64,000 nucleotides of DNA, from the IMG/VR virus record IMGVR_UViG_3300031992_000044. One strand, 5' to 3'. Shown here piece after piece: positions 3,495 through 32,278 of this stretch. The DNA is from a virus. Under the pieces are notes generated by a model that had not been told where the DNA came from, did no database searches, and saw only the letters and a list, made by a program, of their open reading frames with translations. The position numbers and the translations under genes were made by a program. Within the stretch, counting starts at the first letter, position 1. Each line of letters begins with the position of its first letter.

Positions 3495-3543
3495 TTTGAT
3501 AACAGTTTAGAGGGTTTGACATATTTTTGGGAAAATACATTTG

Positions 3544-3614
3544 TTGGGTCACACGGATTCGAACCATGACTAAGGGAACCAAAATCCCTTGTGCCGCCAT
3601 TACACCATAACCCA
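3544..3614 (-). tRNA. tRNA-Gln (anticodon UUG)
   Basis: Hand fold: TGGGTTA/TGACCCA acceptor (U1-A72), D arm GTGT-AATGGCG-GCAC, anticodon arm AGGGA-TTTTGGT-TCCCT, T arm CATGG-TTCGAAT-CCGTG. Confidence 0.85.
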
Positions 3615-4414: not shown

Positions 4415-5008
4415 TTAGTTTTCTTCTATTACAGTATGTACACCAACAACGCCAAGTTCGCACTCCAGAAATGCTTTTCCAGTTGCATCAGGAAAACGCA
4501 CCGTTTTGTGAGTTTTTCCATCTATGTTGACATTAACATTCACAGGATTGTTGACCGGTACAGCAACACGAGCTACGCTCGGGCCCGACTTCCCCAGGGA
4601 TCCCTCGAGATCCGCTCCACCCTTGTTATTACATACATGATCATAACATTCCTGTAGACGCTTTACAACCCAGTTGTACTCTTTCTCACGCTGTGACTTT
4701 TCCATCAGTTCGCGTCCAAGCCCTTTTTGTAGGGCTTCCTTATTACCTCCTGCAGAGAGGTCCACCAATGCATCCCATACAGCCGAAACGAATGCATGGA
4801 ATGTTAGTGGGAATTGACATTTGATAAGGCGATTCCACCACCAATACCTGGTTTCACCAAGCACTACGATACCAGAATCATGTACCTTATATGTCACATA
4901 GGGTCTACCCTCCTCTCCCGCAGACATTACTTTATTACGAATCGTCTCGTTGAGCATCAATCGCTCAATGTTCAACTTCGAATCCGGTGTGAGGAGTTTC
5001 TTCTTCAT
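4415..5008 (-). CDS. Hypothetical protein (197 aa)
   Basis: ORF-track ORF with a TAA stop. Its start lies 3 nt after the stop of 5011..5679. Confidence 0.75.
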   Translation of the reverse strand: MKKKLLTPDSKLNIERLMLNETIRNKVMSAGEEGRPYVTYKVHDSGIVVLGETRYWWWNRLIKCQFPLTFHAFVSAVWDALVDLSAGGNKEALQKGLGRELMEKSQREKEYNWVVKRLQECYDHVCNNKGGADLEGSLGKSGPSVARVAVPVNNPVNVNVNIDGKTHKTVRFPDATGKAFLECELGVVGVHTVIEEN

Positions 5009-17203: not shown

Positions 17204-17723
17204 ACGACTTCTCTGTCTTTACTTGTACTTTAACCGCATTACCGTCGACCGTATCGGTGTAGTAATTATACGAAGTCTCAAATACACCGTCTTTTTTGGT
17301 AACGTCCGACCCTCCACTATCGGTTGCAGCTTTATTATCCTTCGAATCAGCAGGTGTAATCTCTTTTGACATGTTATCATACACAGATATATTCTTTAGG
17401 TATTCATTAACAATCTGCTTTTTGTCAGTTGCACCTGATTTGTTGATACACACATCTGCTACTCGTTTTAACGTGGATACGGGTAAACTTGAGAACGTAC
17501 TATCGATAGACTTTCCGTCTTCGATAATTTCCTGATAGTGAGCAACGTCACCAACATTCTCAAATGTTGGATTCATTAACTCATAGTAGATCACACGAGC
17601 AGACTCTTTAGAGATTTCCTCAATCTCAGTCTGCGTCCAGACTTTAGGCGTTCCGTCGCTGCACGATGAAACACCAAGTGCAAGCATAAACATGCTGCAC
17701 AGAAAGAAAATAAATTTCCTCAT
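17190..17723 (-). CDS. Putative lipoprotein (177 aa)
   Basis: The ATG at 17723 gives MRKFIFFLCSMFMLALGVSSC, a signal peptide plus lipobox Cys. TTATCAAAA-ATG leader. The track ORF start at 17897 is an over-extension. Confidence 0.75.
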   Translation of the reverse strand: MRKFIFFLCSMFMLALGVSSCSDGTPKVWTQTEIEEISKESARVIYYELMNPTFENVGDVAHYQEIIEDGKSIDSTFSSLPVSTLKRVADVCINKSGATDKKQIVNEYLKNISVYDNMSKEITPADSKDNKAATDSGGSDVTKKDGVFETSYNYYTDTVDGNAVKVQVKTEKSYVKE

Positions 17724-17769
17724 TTTTGATAAACGATTTAATTTTAAAACTTTGTTTCGAAACCCAGTT

Positions 17770-18003
17770 TTAAAGGGAACTTGGAATAACCTTTCTTGGG
17801 ATGCACATTGGTGGCATATTTTTATAGCATTTGCGTAAATCAAACGTTGTCTTTTTAGTTGGATAATCAAATCGTGCAATACACGGTGGTTTTCCATTTA
17901 CTTGTTGACAAAACATACATGCAGTATAGCCTGAACTATAACGACATTTATGTATTCTATAAACACTGCCATTTAATGTGACCAATTGACCATTTTTCCA
18001 CAT
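17770..18003 (-). CDS. Small Cys-rich protein (77 aa), paralog of 18936..19124
   Basis: Shares GQLxT(L/I)NxxVYR...C..C with 18936..19124. Confidence 0.6.
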   Translation of the reverse strand: MWKNGQLVTLNGSVYRIHKCRYSSGYTACMFCQQVNGKPPCIARFDYPTKKTTFDLRKCYKNMPPMCIPRKVIPSSL

Positions 18004-18027
18004 AATTGTAAATATTGGTGAGTTTTG

Positions 18028-18098
18028 TAGTCTCTAGGAGAGTCGAACTCCTCTTCTAACAATGAAAATGTTATGTCCTACCGATAGACGAAGAGACC
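18028..18098 (-). tRNA. tRNA-Glu (anticodon UUC)
   Basis: Hand fold: GGTCTCT/AGAGACT acceptor (G1:U72), D arm GTCT-ATCGGTA-GGAC, anticodon arm TAACA-TTTTCAT-TGTTA, T arm AGGAG-TTCGACT-CTCCT. Confidence 0.85.
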
Positions 18099-18387
18099 AG
18101 GTAGGTAGTTACACGGGGAGAGGTAAAAAAACACGAGCCTTGAGTCCTTTTCAGAGTACGCCCTACATAACCACTGTTATGATTGTAACTACCTAATTGG
18201 TGAGACTGTTTATAGGATCTGGCAGGGTAGGCATTTCCCCTCGATTCTATCCTATGCACGGTACAGTCTCTTAAACCTCTTTAGTAAAACGTCCTATCTA
18301 GTTGAGTTAGATATCATACCCCAACTATGCACCACCCTCCTGCTAATATCGCCTGTAGCGAATCCCTCGGACGTATTTGTTGCTGTG
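18099..18387 (-). ncRNA. ORF-free ~290-nt segment between a terminator and tRNA-Glu; candidate ncRNA or long tRNA leader
   Basis: No credible ORF; track ORF 18071..18259 overlaps the tRNA. Relatively GC-rich with several hairpins. It sits directly 5' of tRNA-Glu on the same strand. Confidence 0.3.
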
Positions 18388-18419
18388 AAAAGTATACCCT
18401 GTCTCACGACAGAGTATAC
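18388..18419 (-). terminator. Intrinsic terminator downstream of tRNA-Gln(CUG)
   Basis: Minus-sense GTATAC-T-CTGTC-GTGA-GACAG-G-GTATAC followed by TTTTCAC. Confidence 0.65.
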
Positions 18420-18536
18420 ATGTAATGAACACTTTCATTTAAATAACTTAAATAAACATTAAAAGTACTATGAAAATAAACCTTTAACACATTATTAATT
18501 TATCAATTAAGAAATGTCACACGCTTCACAGCGTTG

Positions 18537-18611
18537 TGTGGGAGAATGGATTCCAACCACTACCTACAGATGCAGAATCTGTCGCTCTGATGGTTATTAA
18601 GCTACTCCCAC
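18537..18611 (-). tRNA. tRNA-Gln (anticodon CUG) with atypical D and T loops
   Basis: Acceptor GTGGGAG/CTCCCAC, D arm GCTT-AATAACCATCA-GAGC, anticodon arm ACAGA-TTCTGCA-TCTGT, T arm AGTGG-TTGGAAT-CCATT. The D loop has CC where GG is expected. The T loop has G at the C56 position. Position 37 is C. Confidence 0.7.
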
Positions 18612-18935
18612 TATACTCAGTTTGACCCACTGAGTCTTAGAATAACTTCGTGCTGAGTCCGATTAGAAGAGCGTCTTTTCGACTTAGTTATCTAAGTTGG
18701 ACAGGTATACATATGTCCGCGTTTAATGCAATTGCACCCTCTCATCATTCGTACAGTAGAGATTGTCTAGACGTTGTATTCAGTTTCCTCATTTAATTCT
18801 GACTAACTGATAAAATCCAGATTCTGTACTTGCGGGCTTGAGGTTTCCGCTTTAGCTGATTTCTATGCAATATTGTAATGAACTCCCGTGCTTCACAGCA
18901 GAGGAGTTCAATAATGAATAAAATTAAAAGGACAT

Positions 18936-19124
18936 TCATACTCTCACGAGTATTATATCATTTATAGCACACTCAAGTAACGGTGTTCCATTACGCGAGT
19001 CCACTACATTTGGGCACATCGTTATGCTATTTAGTGCACATCCATAGCATTTATTTATTCTACGTTTTGCTCTATAGACAGCATTGTTTATTGTGCACAG
19101 CTGTCCTGGCTTTGGCGTCTTCAT
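18936..19124 (-). CDS. Small Cys-rich protein (62 aa), paralog of 17770..18003
   Basis: ORF-track ORF with an ATGA overlap with the upstream gene. Shared N-terminal motif GQLCTINNAVYR. Confidence 0.6.
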   Translation of the reverse strand: MKTPKPGQLCTINNAVYRAKRRINKCYGCALNSITMCPNVVDSRNGTPLLECAINDIILVRV

Positions 19125-19585
19125 ATTACGTAGATATTATTCCATCTTGCTGCCACTTTTTTTTCTTTTGGGCGTAACGAAGACAGACGATACGGATTCC
19201 AAAATATTGGCTCAGTTACTACCACCGATATTTTTGAGTGTGGATTATAAAATACAGTCACATCATATTTACCACGATGCATTGACGTGAGCTCCTCTGT
19301 TTTATCAATTGCATCTTCCCATCTTTTTGTAGATGGATGCGTAATGACTGATGGACGATTTTTTATCAACCATTCTAAGTCATCCACGGGTAGTTGCAAT
19401 TTGATGCATTTTAACTTTTTCAATCGGCTGCGTAATCTTGCGAATGACCCAATAGAGTTTTTAGGTACATGATGTACATATACCTGTGTACCTTCGACAT
19501 CATCTACCATCAGTAGTCCTCCTATTAGAACATTACTGTTTTCCATTTTTGTTCGTACGAAATCTCCTTCTTTTAAATATTCCAT
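19121..19585 (-). CDS. Hypothetical protein (154 aa)
   Basis: ORF-track ORF with a TTATCAAAA-ATG leader. Confidence 0.75.
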   Translation of the reverse strand: MEYLKEGDFVRTKMENSNVLIGGLLMVDDVEGTQVYVHHVPKNSIGSFARLRSRLKKLKCIKLQLPVDDLEWLIKNRPSVITHPSTKRWEDAIDKTEELTSMHRGKYDVTVFYNPHSKISVVVTEPIFWNPYRLSSLRPKEKKVAARWNNIYVI

Positions 19586-19653
19586 TTTTGATAAAATTTA
19601 AACGTTTAAACTCGTGCAGACATTATAGCCCACTAACACTTGGGTTGCAGTTC

Positions 19654-19710
19654 CTTAGAACCAGAATAAGGATGATGATTGCCACACCTATCCAAAATCC
19701 TGGTTCTAAG
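19654..19710. other. 11-bp perfect inverted repeat with a 35-nt spacer
   Basis: CTTAGAACCAG (19654-19664) pairs with CTGGTTCTAAG (19700-19710). Confidence 0.5.
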
Positions 19711-19717
19711 TTGTTAT

Positions 19718-19819
19718 TTATTCTCTGGGCTTCCATAACTTTAGTATTAGTATAGTTAATCCAGAGAATACTACAGAGTACAGTATCATTTTCAAGATAC
19801 CATATGTGATACCTGTCAT
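19718..19819 (-). CDS. Possible 33-aa single-TM peptide
   Basis: Hand-found ORF below the track cutoff: MTGITYGILKMILYSVVFSGLTILILKLWKPRE. Its ATG overlaps the upstream TGA (ATGA). Confidence 0.4.
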   Translation of the reverse strand: MTGITYGILKMILYSVVFSGLTILILKLWKPRE

Positions 19820-20049
19820 TTTGTAATCAAATATGAGCATTGTTCTTCACCTCCGAGATTTTTAATAACCTTGGAGATATCAATCTGAGCTATTTTTGCC
19901 GCATTTTCAGACGGCAATTTAGCTAGTAAGAGAGTGGCAGTGCCGCTCTTGACGAAGAGACGGCGACTGTCGTTTCCTTTAGAATCTACTCGCTTCTTTT
20001 TAGGAAGTGGTGGATTCTGTTGGTTTATTTGTCGTACTCTTTCAGCCAT
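19816..20049 (-). CDS. Hypothetical protein (77 aa)
   Basis: ORF-track ORF with a 25-nt overlap with the upstream gene. Confidence 0.55.
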   Translation of the reverse strand: MAERVRQINQQNPPLPKKKRVDSKGNDSRRLFVKSGTATLLLAKLPSENAAKIAQIDISKVIKNLGGEEQCSYLITK

Positions 20050-20525
20050 GCTTCGAACATTTGTTTCAATAATGACTCACTAATACGTCTATATAGTACT
20101 TCGAATGATAGATCTGAATCCCTTCCGAGTAGAATTGCACCCGATGTACCCATACGAGTATTAGTCTCATCCCACGTTTCAATTATTTCTCTAACAAACT
20201 TCTTATCTTCTTCTAGTTGTTTGTTGCTGGAATCAGTTGAATCTACTTCGGGAAGATCGTTGACAAATGCAATTAGGTCTCTACATCTTGCTCTTGCTTC
20301 ACTGATGTTTCTAACCTTACAGCATTCTGCTAGTTCTTTAACTTCTACGAAGAATCGACCATCTCTTGGTGAAATGTTAATCGCAAAAATATGATTATCT
20401 TTACACCAATTTTTTATTGTTTGTTTATTGATAATCGCATTAAATTTGTTCTTCCACTCAAGGTTTACTTCTTTTACGCACGTTATTTCTAAGCGCTCGT
20501 TTACAGATTTGATAACTGTTTCCAT
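20025..20525 (-). CDS. Hypothetical protein (166 aa)
   Basis: ORF-track ORF. Confidence 0.75.
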   Translation of the reverse strand: METVIKSVNERLEITCVKEVNLEWKNKFNAIINKQTIKNWCKDNHIFAINISPRDGRFFVEVKELAECCKVRNISEARARCRDLIAFVNDLPEVDSTDSSNKQLEEDKKFVREIIETWDETNTRMGTSGAILLGRDSDLSFEVLYRRISESLLKQMFEAWLKEYDK

Positions 20526-20528
20526 TGT

Positions 20529-20711
20529 TCAAATTTTTTGATTGATTTCGTCCACTTGTTCAAGGACAACTTTTTGGATGTTGTCATGACGCTTTTGCTC
20601 ATTTTTAAGAGCTTTTAATTCAGAGTTTACTCTATATATGAGCACAAGTGCCCATACTAAGAAGATGAGAGTTAATGCTATATGGAAGCGCTCTAAGATT
20701 TCTAATGTCAT
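20529..20711 (-). CDS. Small TM protein (60 aa)
   Basis: ORF-track ORF with hydrophobic core LTLIFLVWALVLIY and a TTATCAAA-ATG leader. Confidence 0.6.
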   Translation of the reverse strand: MTLEILERFHIALTLIFLVWALVLIYRVNSELKALKNEQKRHDNIQKVVLEQVDEINQKI

Positions 20712-20725
20712 TTTGATAATGTTTT

Positions 20726-20839
20726 TTGATGTTATTCACTTGTAGAAGACCTGTCGCTTCTACTCGACCCACGAAACGCTTCGTAGTAAAATATGCAGAT
20801 TAATACTACAATGATAAAACCTACAAATAATCCACTCAT
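20726..20839 (-). CDS. Possible 37-aa single-TM peptide
   Basis: Hand-found ORF: MSGLFVGFIIVVLICIFYYEAFRGSSRSDRSSTSE. ATGA overlap with the upstream stop. Confidence 0.4.
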
Positions 20840-21102
20840 ATTTCAGAACGTTTAGCAAGATCTGTCATTATTTGTTGCGGTACAGAGTACTCCGAATGTC
20901 CACGTAATACACCATAATGTACTTTGTCGAGATGTTCAGCAATATTACACATTGCTTTTACTAACGCATCACCGTTCTTGTTGCATACTGCGAGAACGAT
21001 ATTTCCATCACTTGCTTTGAATGTGACGTGTGGCACATCACCTAAAGCATTTTCAACTTGTTTGATGATTTTCTCATCTTTTGTTACTAGCTTTTTACTC
21101 AT
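20836..21102 (-). CDS. Hypothetical protein (88 aa)
   Basis: Track ORF 20836..21204 runs through a terminator hairpin. The ATG at 21102 (MSKKLVTKDEK) lies just after it. Confidence 0.7.
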   Translation of the reverse strand: MSKKLVTKDEKIIKQVENALGDVPHVTFKASDGNIVLAVCNKNGDALVKAMCNIAEHLDKVHYGVLRGHSEYSVPQQIMTDLAKRSEI

Positions 21103-21137
21103 TTTGTTAATATTTAAGGGTTTAAAATTGATTTTCA

Positions 21138-21165
21138 AACAAAAGGCGCACTTAGAGTGTGCGCC
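21138..21165 (-). terminator. Intrinsic terminator closing the 21166-22084 ORF-free block
   Basis: Minus-sense GGCGCAC-ACTCTAA-GTGCGCC followed by TTTTGTTTGAAAATCAAT. Confidence 0.75.
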
Positions 21166-21330
21166 ATACTCATCTGTGAGGTTTTCGAAGTTCGTTGCCG
21201 CCATGCGCTTAATGGTTCGGTTTCAGCGCAATCCATACCAGAAGGGCTGTCATCCCTTGTATACTGGCCCTACTAACCATAGTTTTGACGTACTATTTTT
21301 ATCACAGGGGAGTATTGTACTTCTAATCCC

Positions 21331-21366
21331 GACATTTACATGTTTCGTCTTAATTTTCAAAGACTC
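21331..21366 (-). repeat. Conserved element copy 1 (candidate promoter or RNA 5' module)
   Basis: Minus-sense GAGTCTTTGAAAATTAAGACGAAAC (25/25 identical to copy 2), then AAATGTC after a 2-nt indel. Contains the hairpin GTCTT..AAGAC. Lies immediately downstream of a terminator. Confidence 0.5.
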
Positions 21367-21380
21367 TTCAGGGGATTTAA

Positions 21381-21413
21381 TAAAACTCCTCATATCTTCA
21401 CAGACCTGAGGAG
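21381..21413 (-). terminator. Intrinsic terminator
   Basis: Minus-sense CTCCTC-(loop)-GAGGAG followed by TTTTATT. Confidence 0.6.
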
Positions 21414-21474
21414 GAATAACTAGATAACTAAAAAAACCTAAAACTTATATGGATAATTGTTATAATGGTTCTTA

Positions 21475-21520
21475 TAAAAGGGCGGAGAGGGCCCCTTGTC
21501 CATGCTTCGGATCTCCGCCC
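21475..21520 (-). terminator. Intrinsic terminator
   Basis: Minus-sense GGGCGGAGA-(23-nt loop)-TCTCCGCCC followed by TTTTATAAG. Confidence 0.7.
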
Positions 21521-21987
21521 TGCACTCTACGTTCCTAGCATCTATAGCTGCATCACGATTCTTTACACAGATTAACCAACTGAGCATTCTGCTTTTCTTT
21601 CTGTGCGAGTGACCATACATAGATGGATTTTTGTTTGTGAGGACTAGTATCATCACCTCACAGTACCCTCTCTTTACGTCAAGCAGGGCTTTGTTTTTGT
21701 AAGGACTTGGAACGGTAGTCACCTCACTGTACACCTATTGCCTAGTGTCTTTCGACCAATGTGCTTTGTGGAGTCTTAGGTCCGATTACTCCCAGAACGT
21801 CTTTTTGAGCGTTTCAGTTTATCTTACGCACAACTTGACTACTTTTGTTTTTCAACCTTTTTTCAAACAAAGCGCGAATCAATCCACAAGGTTTTCTCAG
21901 TGTTCGTTTAATGTCATGCTGCTGAGCTACCCACATGACTAACAATACAGCTTACGATTTCCTTGGTCACGTAATACTGCATCAAAA

Positions 21988-22021
21988 GACATTTCCGTTT
22001 CGTCTTAATTTTCAAAGACTC
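21988..22021 (-). repeat. Conserved element copy 2
   Basis: The same 25-mer as 21342-21366 plus the shared GACATTT (plus-sense) flank. Confidence 0.5.
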
Positions 22022-22084
22022 ATCGGGCGCTTTGGTGAGCGCAACGGAAGAGCAGTTTTAACACTTGCTTAGGTGCTGAATAAC

Positions 22085-22282
22085 TCATAGACGAGCTATT
22101 CTTTGATACGGTGCAAGCATTGCTGCTTGCATCGGAGTTACTGCGAGCTTGATGCTCCCACACTTGGCGTATATGGATTTCTCTCTACGCCCTGTTGTGC
22201 CAGCTTTGCGGTCATGAGATATCATGATGTGGCTACCGTCTGAGCTGGCTACTGCTGATGGATTGAATCTACGTCTATGCAT
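22085..22282 (-). CDS. Possible small basic protein (65 aa)
   Basis: ORF-track ORF. Its ATG lies 1 nt after the stop of 22284..22619. Coding status uncertain. Confidence 0.4.
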   Translation of the reverse strand: MHRRRFNPSAVASSDGSHIMISHDRKAGTTGRREKSIYAKCGSIKLAVTPMQAAMLAPYQRIARL

Positions 22283-22283
22283 A

Positions 22284-22619
22284 TTAGTATTCTAACATAA
22301 ATTTCTCTAATGCTATAATCTCATAATTGAGTTGTTTCTTGTATGATATATAATCAACTCTTGTACAGTCACCTTTACAGTTTTCAAATATAGTATTTCT
22401 GCCATATTTGTATAGAATAATCATTATAATTAATCTATTTAATGAATACCTATTTTTTGTATAAAGACGATAATGTTGAGTTATATTTTGAGCTGATTCA
22501 TATCGTATTGTTGGGAGAAGATGAGCTCTTATCTTTGTTGGAGAACACATTATACTATTGTGGCTTGTTATGTATTTCTCTAACGCAGATACAATGTTTT
22601 GAAATGTATCATAGTCCAT
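22284..22619 (-). CDS. Hypothetical protein (111 aa from MDYDTF)
   Basis: Track ORF 22284..22715. The ATG at 22619 carries a GAAATCAATCACCAATAAT-ATG leader like that of 23635..24042. Confidence 0.5.
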   Translation of the reverse strand: MDYDTFQNIVSALEKYITSHNSIMCSPTKIRAHLLPTIRYESAQNITQHYRLYTKNRYSLNRLIIMIILYKYGRNTIFENCKGDCTRVDYISYKKQLNYEIIALEKFMLEY

Positions 22620-22730
22620 ATTATTGGTGATTGATTTCGAAGAAAGAACCGACACAATCTTTTGGATTGTACAATTGGCGACTAGCCCTACCAAGTGGCT
22701 CATGTGCCGGTTCAAGTGAGGAAATAGAGT

Positions 22731-22762: not shown

Positions 22763-23634
22763 TTTGTTATTTGAATTGATTTCAAATATAAAAGGCTGAG
22801 TGTTGACCTTTTGTGTTACCATTTATATCTCTTTCAAGATATTCACACACCTGTTTTTATCAAGTAGGTAACATACGGACACATTTTTATTAGAAATGTG
22901 CAAAAACTACTCTCATATTATGTAGACTAATTTCTCACTCATGGCGCTTGCGGCTTAACAGAGTGCCCCCTGAGACCAGATAAGTTTGATTTCATCTTTG
23001 TGTTTTCCTTGCGGTACTCACACAATCTGCGTATTACAGCAGAACAACCGTATTTTCATACGAGAGTGCATAACACTTTTGCTTTTGTTAAATACTTTGG
23101 ATAAAATAGATAACTAGAGCTCTGCTTGGAAGATGTGGTTATGCTTGTCACCATACTGGCTTTTGACCAGCTGCAGGTGCAACACCTTCCTATTTTCGCC
23201 TGCCAAGGCTACTCATTTCTAATAGTTTTATTTATCCTACCATTTCTGACTCAAGTAACCAGCTGGAGTTCACCATTGGTTGATGAATAGGATATTACTA
23301 ATAGATTACACACTCTATTGGACTGGCAATCCTCTGGAGTATGATTATACTATATATTGTCGGTGTTACCACCCAAGGTAGCTTAGCAAGAGCCACCGTA
23401 TACCTCTTCAACTCTGCCCGAGTATCCCAAGATATACTTATATAGTATAGCTTTCTTATGAACAGAGTCTGTGCTAAAGCACATATCTGCGCACACTCTT
23501 TCTAAAGGAGTGCACTTTATAGCATCGCTGCTTTATTCTCAAAGACAAGAAGCCTGCCTTCCATCACCGTTCACATTACTGTGCCGACTACTTTGGATAT
23601 GTCGGGTGTAGGTTTAAAGGGGCTAATGCCCAAG
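22763..23634. ncRNA. ORF-free block (~870 nt), candidate noncoding RNA
   Basis: No ORF of 60 aa or more. In 22741-22920, TAA/TGA triplets hit all three minus-sense frames. Hairpins include CGTAT-TTTC-ATACG at about 23050. Confidence 0.3.
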
Positions 23635-30566: not shown

Positions 30567-30641
30567 TGCTCCATGGTGTAGCGGTAGCACGGGAGGCTCT
30601 AACCCTCCAGGTCCGGGTTCGACTCGATGGTGGGGCGACCA
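30567..30641 (+). tRNA. Amber suppressor tRNA (anticodon CUA), Gln-like, with encoded CCA
   Basis: Acceptor TGCTCCA/TGGGGCG (two G:U pairs), then A-CCA. D arm TG-GTGT-AGCGGTA-GCAC is identical in stem to the tRNA-Gln(UUG) of this window. Anticodon arm GGAGG-CTCTAAC-CCTCC. T loop TTCGACT is present, but I could not pair a clean 5-bp T stem by hand. Confidence 0.75.
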
Positions 30642-31396: not shown

Positions 31397-32278
31397 ATGG
31401 AAAACTCTAAAATTTTTATGTTCCCTGAGAACGGGACAAAGAGCTCTATCGATCCTACTCTGCTTGCTCTGATGAACAACAATGGTGGTTTCGGTGGTAA
31501 TAACTGGATATGGATTCTCTTCCTCTGGCTCATCTGGGGAGGTTATGGAATGAATGGTTTTGGCGGCATGGGAGGCTTCGGAGGTAATGGCTACTTCGCT
31601 AACCAGCTTGCTAATAGCGAAGGTAGAGATCTTCTGCTGCAGGCTATAAATGGTCGTGCAGATGCTCTCGGACAGCTTGCTAGTATTACTAATAGTAATG
31701 TAGAACAAGTATAGGCCGCTGTCAACACTTTGAATACCAGCATCCAGAATGTAGGCTCTCAGGTTGGTATGTCTAGCTTACAGGTAACCAACGCAATTCA
31801 GAGTGGTAATGCTTCTTTAAGCCACCAACTCTGTGAGTGTTGCTGCGAGAATCGTCTGCTGACAACTCAGCAAGGTTATGAGAATCGCATCTAGACCATT
31901 GAGCAGACCAATCAGCTTGGTTCTCAGGCCGACCGCAATACACGGTCAATAACAGACGCTATTGCGAATCTCCAGACCAACATGACCCGTGAGTTCTGTG
32001 ATATTCGTGAGCGTGAAATGCAAAGTAAGATTGACACACAGAGTGATATTATCACTCAACTGCGTGGTCAGCTGGATAATGATCGTCAGACAGCACAGCT
32101 GTTTAACGCTATTAATCCTCTGCAGGCTAAGGTTAATGAGATTGCTAACAAGCAGCCCAACACTGTGCCTGTTGTATGGCCTAACTTAACCGCAGTTAAC
32201 AACACTCCTTACGCAGCTGGAGCTTTATATGGCTTTGGTTGGAATAATGGTTGGGGTTCTAACAGCTTTTGGAATTGA
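31397..32278 (+). CDS. Hypothetical membrane/Gly-rich protein, 2 in-frame TAG (293 aa)
   Basis: Track ORFs 31346..31714 and 31982..32278 share frame 2. The gap is open except for TAG at 31712 and 31892. N-terminus has WIWILFLWLIWGGYGMNGFGGMGGFGG. Confidence 0.75.

Follow-up and report, generated by a model that had tools for sequence, protein, structure and literature searches.

The 837-nucleotide (nt) stretch 18099-18935 on the minus strand of the analysed viral DNA (the window, 64,000 nt in total) is probably an RNA-processing island in which two composite transfer RNA (tRNA) units lie on a minus-strand early transcript, a reading to which we give a probability of roughly 0.6. From the letters of the window and its relatives, each unit is best described as a series of conserved RNA modules that fold separately and lead straight into a tRNA. 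The first unit would comprise a hairpin with a GUGA loop, a twister-like ribozyme, a three-hairpin leader, tRNA-Gln(CUG) and a small hairpin, while the second would comprise an AT-rich spacer, another GUGA hairpin, three modules termed M8, M7 and M9, and tRNA-Glu. The proposal is built on conservation, covariation, a twister-type layout, the tRNAs and the fixed positions of the modules relative to the tRNAs. New here are a twister-like variant with covariation evidence, a fixed hairpin-ribozyme-leader-tRNA arrangement and unclassified leader modules.

The core of the first unit is a twister-like element at 18731-18871 (-), of type P1 with a 79-nt insert in P5, delineated by an alignment of 19 sequences (A2), pair counts and minimum free energy (MFE) folds. 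In the alignment its helices follow the order P1-P2-P4-P5-P2'-P1', matching the Rfam twister-P1 consensus. On the minus strand of the window, P1 pairs 18871-18866 with 18736-18731, P2 pairs 18860-18857 with 18747-18744, P4 pairs 18850-18847 with 18835-18832, and P5 is closed by the pair 18829/18751. In all sequences the 4-base-pair (bp) P2 is flanked by A (18861) facing G (18743), and the P2 of twister ribozymes consists of four Watson-Crick pairs and a sheared A-G pair (PMC5408937). The GC dinucleotide after P2 (18856-18855) is complementary to a GC of the P4 loop (18837-18836), with which it would form the pseudoknot T2. The 11-nt P4 loop holds a C-rich run followed by AAGC, and the C-rich run is complementary to four of the seven bases on the 3' strand of the P1/P2 internal loop, forming the pseudoknot T1 (18843-18840 with 18741-18738). 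All loop words of twister (the C-run, AAGC and GA plus a G-run) can be found, although the internal loop is longer by 2+2 bases and the P4 loop by three. P1, P2, P4 and P5 also appear in the MFE folds of three diverged members. Cleavage is predicted at an N-A step adjoining P1, between 18865 and 18864 or between 18863 and 18862, within the five unpaired bases that follow P1. The layout was judged against the Rfam consensus of the sub-threshold canonical twister in the phage cr273_1 and the description in PMC5408937. The element resembles type P1 twisters with an optional P5 (RF03160; Roth et al., 2014; reviewed in PMC5408937) in helix order, in the A/G flank of P2, in the complementarity of T1 and T2, in loop words and in the N-A step by P1, and also in that it occurs near hammerheads and canonical twisters. 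We consider it a probable ribozyme that is not a family member by the criterion of the library.

Comparison with related phages supports the fold. The BLAST-detectable part of the first ORF-free block (free of open reading frames, ORFs) in cr272_1 and cr273_1 is a 41-nt core only. Pattern scans for this core returned 10 IMG/VR contigs and 20 metagenome contigs, giving 19 distinct sequences including that of the window. In 19/19 sequences the core is followed by an insert of 11-134 nt within P5 and then by a second invariant word of 14 nt. Among the cells of the pair counts, 95.7% are paired as observed, 83.5% after shuffling and 29-44% with slid partners. Double changes are found in six of the six pairs of P1 and in five of the six pairs at the base of P5. 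The four positions of T1 are complementary in 19/19 sequences, with one compensatory double change, in cr272_1. With a covariance model (R1), each phage yields exactly one copy of the element, and the window yields no second one. In the two RefSeq records that carry it, the element is unannotated. A true tRNA is found about 120-450 nt past the element, with no ORF between them, in 11 of the 19 distinct sequences, and most of the remaining sequences have after the element a tRNA-like element with a 7-bp acceptor stem. This tRNA-like element, which is not called by ARAGORN, is seen at the related loci L005 (e.g., L005:905-975), L008, L011, L013, L021 and L029, where it fills the place that the true tRNA takes in other relatives.

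Several observations weigh against assigning the element to the twister ribozymes. The Rfam twister models RF03160, RF03154 and RF02684 give no match at E<=10 to the window copy, nor does a twister model match at E<=10 the copy in cr272_1, in which P5 is no more than a minimal hairpin with a tetraloop. Relative to the twister consensus, the P1/P2 internal loop is longer by two bases per strand, T1 has four pairs and a spare G vs three pairs in the consensus, and the P4 loop starts with three A in place of the consensus U. In the CHiTA study, changes just downstream of the cut site were poorly tolerated (PMC11662667). P2, P4 and T2 are invariant in 19/19 sequences, so that covariation is silent on them; the dinucleotides of T2 are complementary but, being invariant, show no covariation. 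The family is also narrow: members occur in 10 contigs of IMG/VR, in 20 from metagenomes and in 2 of 50,697 phage records. Searches with degenerate patterns for more divergent members returned only the same 10 viral contigs. Natural twisters, for their part, tolerate many imperfections (PMC11662667).

These observations bear directly on an alternative in which 18871-18731 is a structured, non-catalytic element, such as a protein- or ligand-binding pseudoknot or a scaffold for the folding of the tRNA precursor, and host ribonucleases (RNases) alone free the tRNAs. We regard this alternative as unlikely, though it deserves to be taken seriously. It is favored by the lack of a match to the Rfam twister models, by core loops that depart in length from the twister consensus and by the invariance of the catalytic-core helices, which covariation cannot test. 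The likeness to twister, however, takes in the order of the helices, the two pseudoknots, AAGC in the P4 loop, a GC following P2 and a P2 of 4 bp flanked by A and G; the extra bases are on both strands of one loop, as expected if the fold is kept; and the canonical twisters of sister phages share the GUGA-hairpin context described next.

The first GUGA-loop hairpin (18880-18910, -) lies about 9 nt upstream of P1, and a hairpin is found at this spot in all the relatives listed. Its stem differs in sequence among copies while pairing is kept, and the loop is GUGA in nearly all of them, the exceptions being cr272_1/cr273_1 and L009. The hairpin probably serves as a 3' cap for the upstream messenger RNA (mRNA) after cleavage, or is a P0-like stem. 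Canonical-looking twister-P1 matches, below the gathering score at 30-41 bits, are present in sister phages at L002:6620-6675 (-), at 32069-32141 of the closest relative, G002 (the same as L037:2570-2642), and at 98175-98233 of G003; the twister of cr273_1 scores 32.7 bits and that of G002 41.5 bits. The same kind of GUGA hairpin directly precedes the canonical twisters of cr273_1 and G002 (two copies read), and the P4 stem is identical between the twister-like element and the canonical twister of cr273_1. The order in G002 is a GOLLD-like RNA, the canonical twister and then the variant. At roughly the position of the canonical twister of G002, the window has two hammerhead-type matches, which suggests that ribozyme classes are exchanged at one locus. 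These matches, both sub-threshold, are found at 21992-22050 and 21325-21377, about 2.5 kb upstream. Four hairpins with GUGA tetraloops occur within 600 nt on the minus strand of the window, at 18965-18950, 18910-18880, 18539-18517 and 18419-18392. The first of them lies inside the end of a Cys-rich ORF, and the GUGA loop recurs at equivalent spots in relatives. The recurrent GUGA loop may be a shared recognition or stability signal.

Between the twister-like element and tRNA-Gln(CUG) lies the leader M5 (18615-18718, -), which was aligned across seven distinct loci (A3) and ends 3 nt before the tRNA. Of its three hairpins, A (18718-18699, -) has a 10-nt loop and C (18635-18615, -) a 7-nt loop, both invariant, and B (18696-18636, -) varies in its interior; the z-score of the M5 fold is -2.0. 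M5 is directly 5' of tRNA-Gln(CUG) in the window, L018, L028 and L034; at other loci its neighbour is a tRNA-like element or another module. A second module, M2, is a 42-nt H-type pseudoknot at 18780-18821 (-) that is placed inside P5 of the twister-like element in the window and after the ribozyme in L005, L009, L011 and L013. Across its five distinct copies both stems change in sequence with pairing kept. We also compared these structures with coremin/xrRNA-C, which is defined by a hairpin of 3-4 bp with a YGAD loop, a conserved 10-nt spacer and a second hairpin (PMC6546385), and rejected that candidate: the small hairpin at 18682-18672, inside the segment first read as a shared module, has a 5-nt loop starting with G and no spacer word, and the geometry of M2 is different.

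The first unit ends in a small conserved hairpin with a 4-bp core stem and a GUGA loop (18517-18539, -) that overlaps the 3' end of tRNA-Gln, and the same 12-nt hairpin core follows a tRNA or a tRNA-like element in L004, L017 and L028. A first-pass annotation of this DNA had placed a terminator here. The hairpin, at about 18539-18517, is real; its stem is bulged and its tail is a mixture of A, U and C that lacks a proper U-tract, and a terminator scan made no call, all of which speaks against an intrinsic terminator.

The second unit opens with an AT-rich spacer (18420-18516, -), which has a 13-nt A/T word in common with L004 and L017. The spacer possibly holds a promoter for the second unit; it contains one sigma-70-like match, no more than are found in shuffled sequences. 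The GUGA-loop hairpin that comes after it (18392-18419, -) has a 12-bp stem and is followed by a conserved U-rich word. Hairpin and word are kept in L004, L017 and, with a different stem, L028, and L034 has at the same spot a GUGA-loop hairpin followed by a different word.

Module M8 (18289-18374, -) is composed of a 6-bp closing stem, a G-tract strand, a hairpin and a conserved GUA, and is known from the window and 14 further distinct copies. Its closing stem occurs in seven sequence versions among these 15 copies, all fully complementary. The G-tract strand has four GG tracts with 1-3-1 spacing (other copies are found, e.g., at L004:2005-2066 and from position 4920 on the minus strand of L017). 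Folding that allows for G-quadruplexes predicts a two-tier quadruplex in just 4 of the 15 copies, and because of this we keep an M8 quadruplex as speculation only. M8 stands before a protein gene in most relatives, at a distance of roughly 90-100 nt from the gene start. Module M7 (18202-18270, -) has a structured interior and an 8-bp closing stem (18270-18263 with 18209-18202) that covaries between the window, L004, L017 and the L005 group. Module M9 (18099-18201, -), which is supported by the inverted repeat I5 and ends 5 nt before tRNA-Glu, contains a 12-bp long-range stem, an inner hairpin and a third stem; RNAalifold analysis of three sequences revealed double changes in 7 of the 12 outer pairs and 4 of the 6 pairs of the inner hairpin. 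The order of modules in relatives differs from that in the window. Because the same modules recur in other orders in relatives, the ORF-free blocks are modular in a pan-genome sense.

Modularity had also been claimed by the first-pass annotation, which read 18632-18680 as collinear with 21771-21810 and took the two ORF-free blocks, 18099-18935 and 21166-22084, to be built from related modules. The three words on which the claim rested are present letter for letter at both places, and reusable modules do recur in other orders and positions across relatives. The quoted similarity is nonetheless not evidence for them, its alignment being at shuffle level, unconserved in relatives and different in structural role at the two sites. 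In gapped local alignments of the two blocks under five schemes, the observed score was reached by 50/300, 69/200, 21/200, 28/200 and 81/200 dinucleotide shuffles, and BLAST of 18099-18935 against the whole window did not report this pair at E<=5. The sole statistic above shuffles, a chain of collinear exact 8-mers that beat 200/200 shuffles (26 bases covered vs a shuffle maximum of 23), was chosen after the data had been seen. The middle word, a 9-mer at 18665-18657 and 21788-21780, is in no related phage at either site. The word at 18640-18632 is the conserved 3' strand of leader hairpin B together with the start of hairpin C, and is common to seven distinct loci. The other two words are within the interior of hairpin B, whose window-specific part (18648-18685, -) is replaced in the closest relative, L018, by a 15-nt stretch without them. 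At 21810-21771 the same words build a separate small hairpin, of which the L013 homologue keeps the stem by compensatory changes and has a different loop. The similarity, only marginally above chance, would at best reflect a recent, window-specific event, and not a building block; the blocks are modular through the recurrence of whole modules, not through this 40-nt similarity.

On the basis of these structures we propose the following course of processing. The ribozyme would fold co-transcriptionally and cut itself on its 5' side, at 18865/18864 or 18863/18862. The upstream mRNA of the Cys-rich gene would be left with the hairpin and a cyclic phosphate end, and the downstream RNA would bear a 5'-OH. 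Cutting by RNase P at the 5' end of tRNA-Gln (between 18611 and 18612) would then yield a structured leader RNA of about 250 nt and the tRNA. The second unit would be processed by RNase P and RNase Z, and because the next ORF starts 24 nt after tRNA-Glu, processing of this tRNA may also fix where the next mRNA begins. In this scheme, self-cleavage and its precise position, the order of processing and any role of the released leaders are all predictions.

The released leaders (about 250 nt before tRNA-Gln and about 290 nt before tRNA-Glu) might alternatively be the real product, stable trans-acting RNAs, for example decoys that lure away RNases or defence proteins of the host, while ribozyme and tRNAs would do no more than set their ends. 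The M5 loops do not vary among diverged relatives, the modules persist where a non-decoding tRNA-like element replaces the tRNA (L004, L005) and a GOLLD-like RNA is present in the same early region, all of which would fit such a role. The order and content of modules, however, vary widely among close relatives, which is a better fit to interchangeable cis elements, and M8 precedes protein genes in most relatives; we consider the alternative improbable. A bolder version of the processing-island reading, which we regard as rather doubtful, would make the element a distinct twister subclass with an expanded active-site loop and a 4-bp T1, within a dedicated cassette of GUGA hairpin, ribozyme, leader and tRNA, whose excised leaders, including M8 as possibly a natural RNA G-quadruplex, act in trans in host takeover.

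GOLLD and ROOL are phage-associated RNAs that often adjoin tRNAs, and the first-pass annotation raised the possibility that the stretch belongs to such a class of large RNA. The corresponding reading, in which the whole stretch would be a single large, ornate RNA of GOLLD/ROOL type with the tRNAs inside or beside it, draws on this habit of phage RNAs and on a GOLLD-like match 4 kb upstream, but it is already contradicted and is very hard to sustain. No GOLLD, ROOL or other large-RNA model matches 17700-22400 at E<=10; in 18090-18945 the Rfam scan finds no family but tRNA at E<=0.5, which excludes a GOLLD or ROOL identity for 18099-18935. The stretch is moreover interrupted by the AT-rich spacer and two tRNAs, and its modules fold locally and are shuffled between relatives. 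At E<=10, 18090-18945 has five chance-level matches to unrelated small-RNA and ribosomal RNA families (E 0.58-3.3, far below gathering scores) and none to ribozyme- or GOLLD-like families; other Rfam matches with E>3 in 17700-22400 are at chance level as well. In the window and in 17 related loci alike, the tRNAs are the only modules to attain an Rfam gathering score. The suggestion came close in one respect, as there does appear to be a GOLLD-like RNA in the next ORF-free block upstream (22763-23634): a scan of the whole window at E<=0.5 matched the full GOLLD model (RF02032) to 22793-23190 (-) with 96.3 bits and an E value of 5.9e-24. This match, sub-threshold against a gathering score of 150 and about 4 kb upstream of 18099-18935, is the only GOLLD-like match in the window, and its counterparts in the two closest relatives score 82 and 85 bits, with none in cr272_1 or cr131_1. 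The hatchet ribozyme (RF02678) was rejected as a candidate, with no match at gathering score in the window and 17 related loci and none at E<=10 in 17700-22400. A hatchet search of four related phage genomes gave nothing at E<=0.1, and control genomes were equally blank, so that this search cannot show absence.

Conservation and covariation in relatives bear out the first-pass view of the ORF-free stretches as conserved structured RNA beside tRNAs. That they are ORF-free holds in that no ORF longer than 69 amino acids (aa) overlaps 18099-18935 under table 11, with TAG read as Gln or under table 4 (TGA read as Trp). An alternative genetic code behind the missing ORFs was rejected, since ORFs stay at or below 69 aa with TAG read as Gln and under table 4. 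Short ORFs of 30-69 aa can be drawn, and the blocks might on that account be unrecognised small protein genes or decaying coding sequence. Substitutions between relatives, however, keep base pairs and not reading frames, and insertions of many different lengths occur within stems, which together with the absence of longer ORFs under all three codes leaves a coding origin with a very slim chance.

The proposed island can be set beside several known systems. Weinberg and colleagues reportedly described, in 2015, ribozyme-associated intergenic RNA islands with twister, hammerhead, hatchet, pistol and RAGATH motifs. Phage-like DNA is already known to harbour intergenic islands rich in ribozymes (PMC6765202). 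Like these, the present locus has several putative self-cleaving ribozymes and unclassified motifs clustered between small phage genes, for which the usual hypothesis is processing of a polycistronic transcript; unlike them, its modules run directly into true tRNAs or tRNA-like elements. Theta ribozymes, which are minimal ribozymes of the hepatitis delta virus (HDV) type, adjoin tRNAs of gut phages (PMC10879173). They share with the element described here the coupling of a small self-cleaving ribozyme class, cleavage being predicted in the present case, to tRNA genes of gut phages that also have suppressor tRNAs. Theta ribozymes, however, are HDV-like and abut the 3' end of the tRNA, whereas the present element resembles twister, precedes the tRNA by 120-450 nt and is predicted to cut at the 5' end of a leader and not at an end of the tRNA. 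With twister itself, the comparison is between a family whose Rfam models are blind to the element at E<=10 and an element with P5 inserts of 11-134 nt and predicted cleavage. GOLLD (RF02032) is likewise phage-borne and near tRNAs, with a GOLLD-like match in the same early region, but the island is a chain of small modules, with no similarity to GOLLD in 18099-18935 or 21166-22084. The tRNA punctuation model of mitochondria and the t-elements of plant mitochondria are similar in that tRNAs or tRNA-like elements border RNA units, here with the next ORF close behind tRNA-Glu, and differ in that the setting here is a phage, a putative ribozyme stands at one border and processing is predicted.

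crAss-like phages are among the most abundant viruses of the gut. A 2023 review of the crAss-like phage order makes no mention of self-cleaving ribozymes or non-coding RNA islands (PMC10136315). The present locus indicates that seemingly empty gaps in the early regions of these phages hold conserved RNA machinery, including what appears to be a ribozyme variant, unseen by the standard library, that is joined to tRNA genes in a phage with an amber-suppressor-type tRNA. If the predicted cleavage is real, twister occupies a wider sequence space than now known, the division of an early phage transcript into messages, leaders and tRNAs acquires a concrete, testable model, and gaps of this kind become worth searching with relaxed structural descriptors during annotation.

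The phage records nearest to 17700-22400, as found by distant BLAST matches that cover just about 2% of this query, are all crAss-like Suoliviridae/Oafivirinae (cr272_1, cr273_1 and cr131_1), and the window is, judged by these matches, DNA of a crAss-like phage with relatives in this group. All genes and tRNAs of 17700-22400, together with a permuted transfer-messenger RNA, are on the minus strand, and the order of elements given in the first-pass annotation agrees with the ORF list, ARAGORN and the Rfam tRNA model. Upstream of the RNA block, and ending just before it, is a small Cys-rich ORF of 62 aa (18936-19124, -; ORF list), which is context and not part of the RNA; a homologue stands upstream of the same RNA element in relatives. 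An ORF-free interval of 324 nt separates it from tRNA-Gln(CUG) (18536-18611, -), and, after the AT-rich spacer, about 290 ORF-free nt precede tRNA-Glu(UUC) (18027-18098, -). Both tRNAs were called by ARAGORN and score 52.7 and 52.6 bits, respectively, with the Rfam tRNA model RF00005 (threshold 29). The next ORF in the ORF list, 24 nt past tRNA-Glu, is a Cys-rich ORF of 77 aa (17770-18003, -). The two flanking Cys-rich genes had been called paralogues, and they do appear to be, if weakly, with 40% identity over 45 aa and a pairwise E value of 2e-5. Among eight neighbouring ORFs none matches Pfam at gathering score or a PHROG family, and weak sub-threshold Pfam matches occur only in ORFs 20836-21105 and 22284-22715, both outside 18099-18935. 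The window also carries tRNAs at 30567-30641 (+) and 3543-3614 (-), which with that at 18536-18611 (-) make up a set of a suppressor-type CUA tRNA, tRNA-Gln(UUG) and tRNA-Gln(CUG). One base separates the anticodons CUG and CUA, which fits a recoding of TAG to Gln in late genes.

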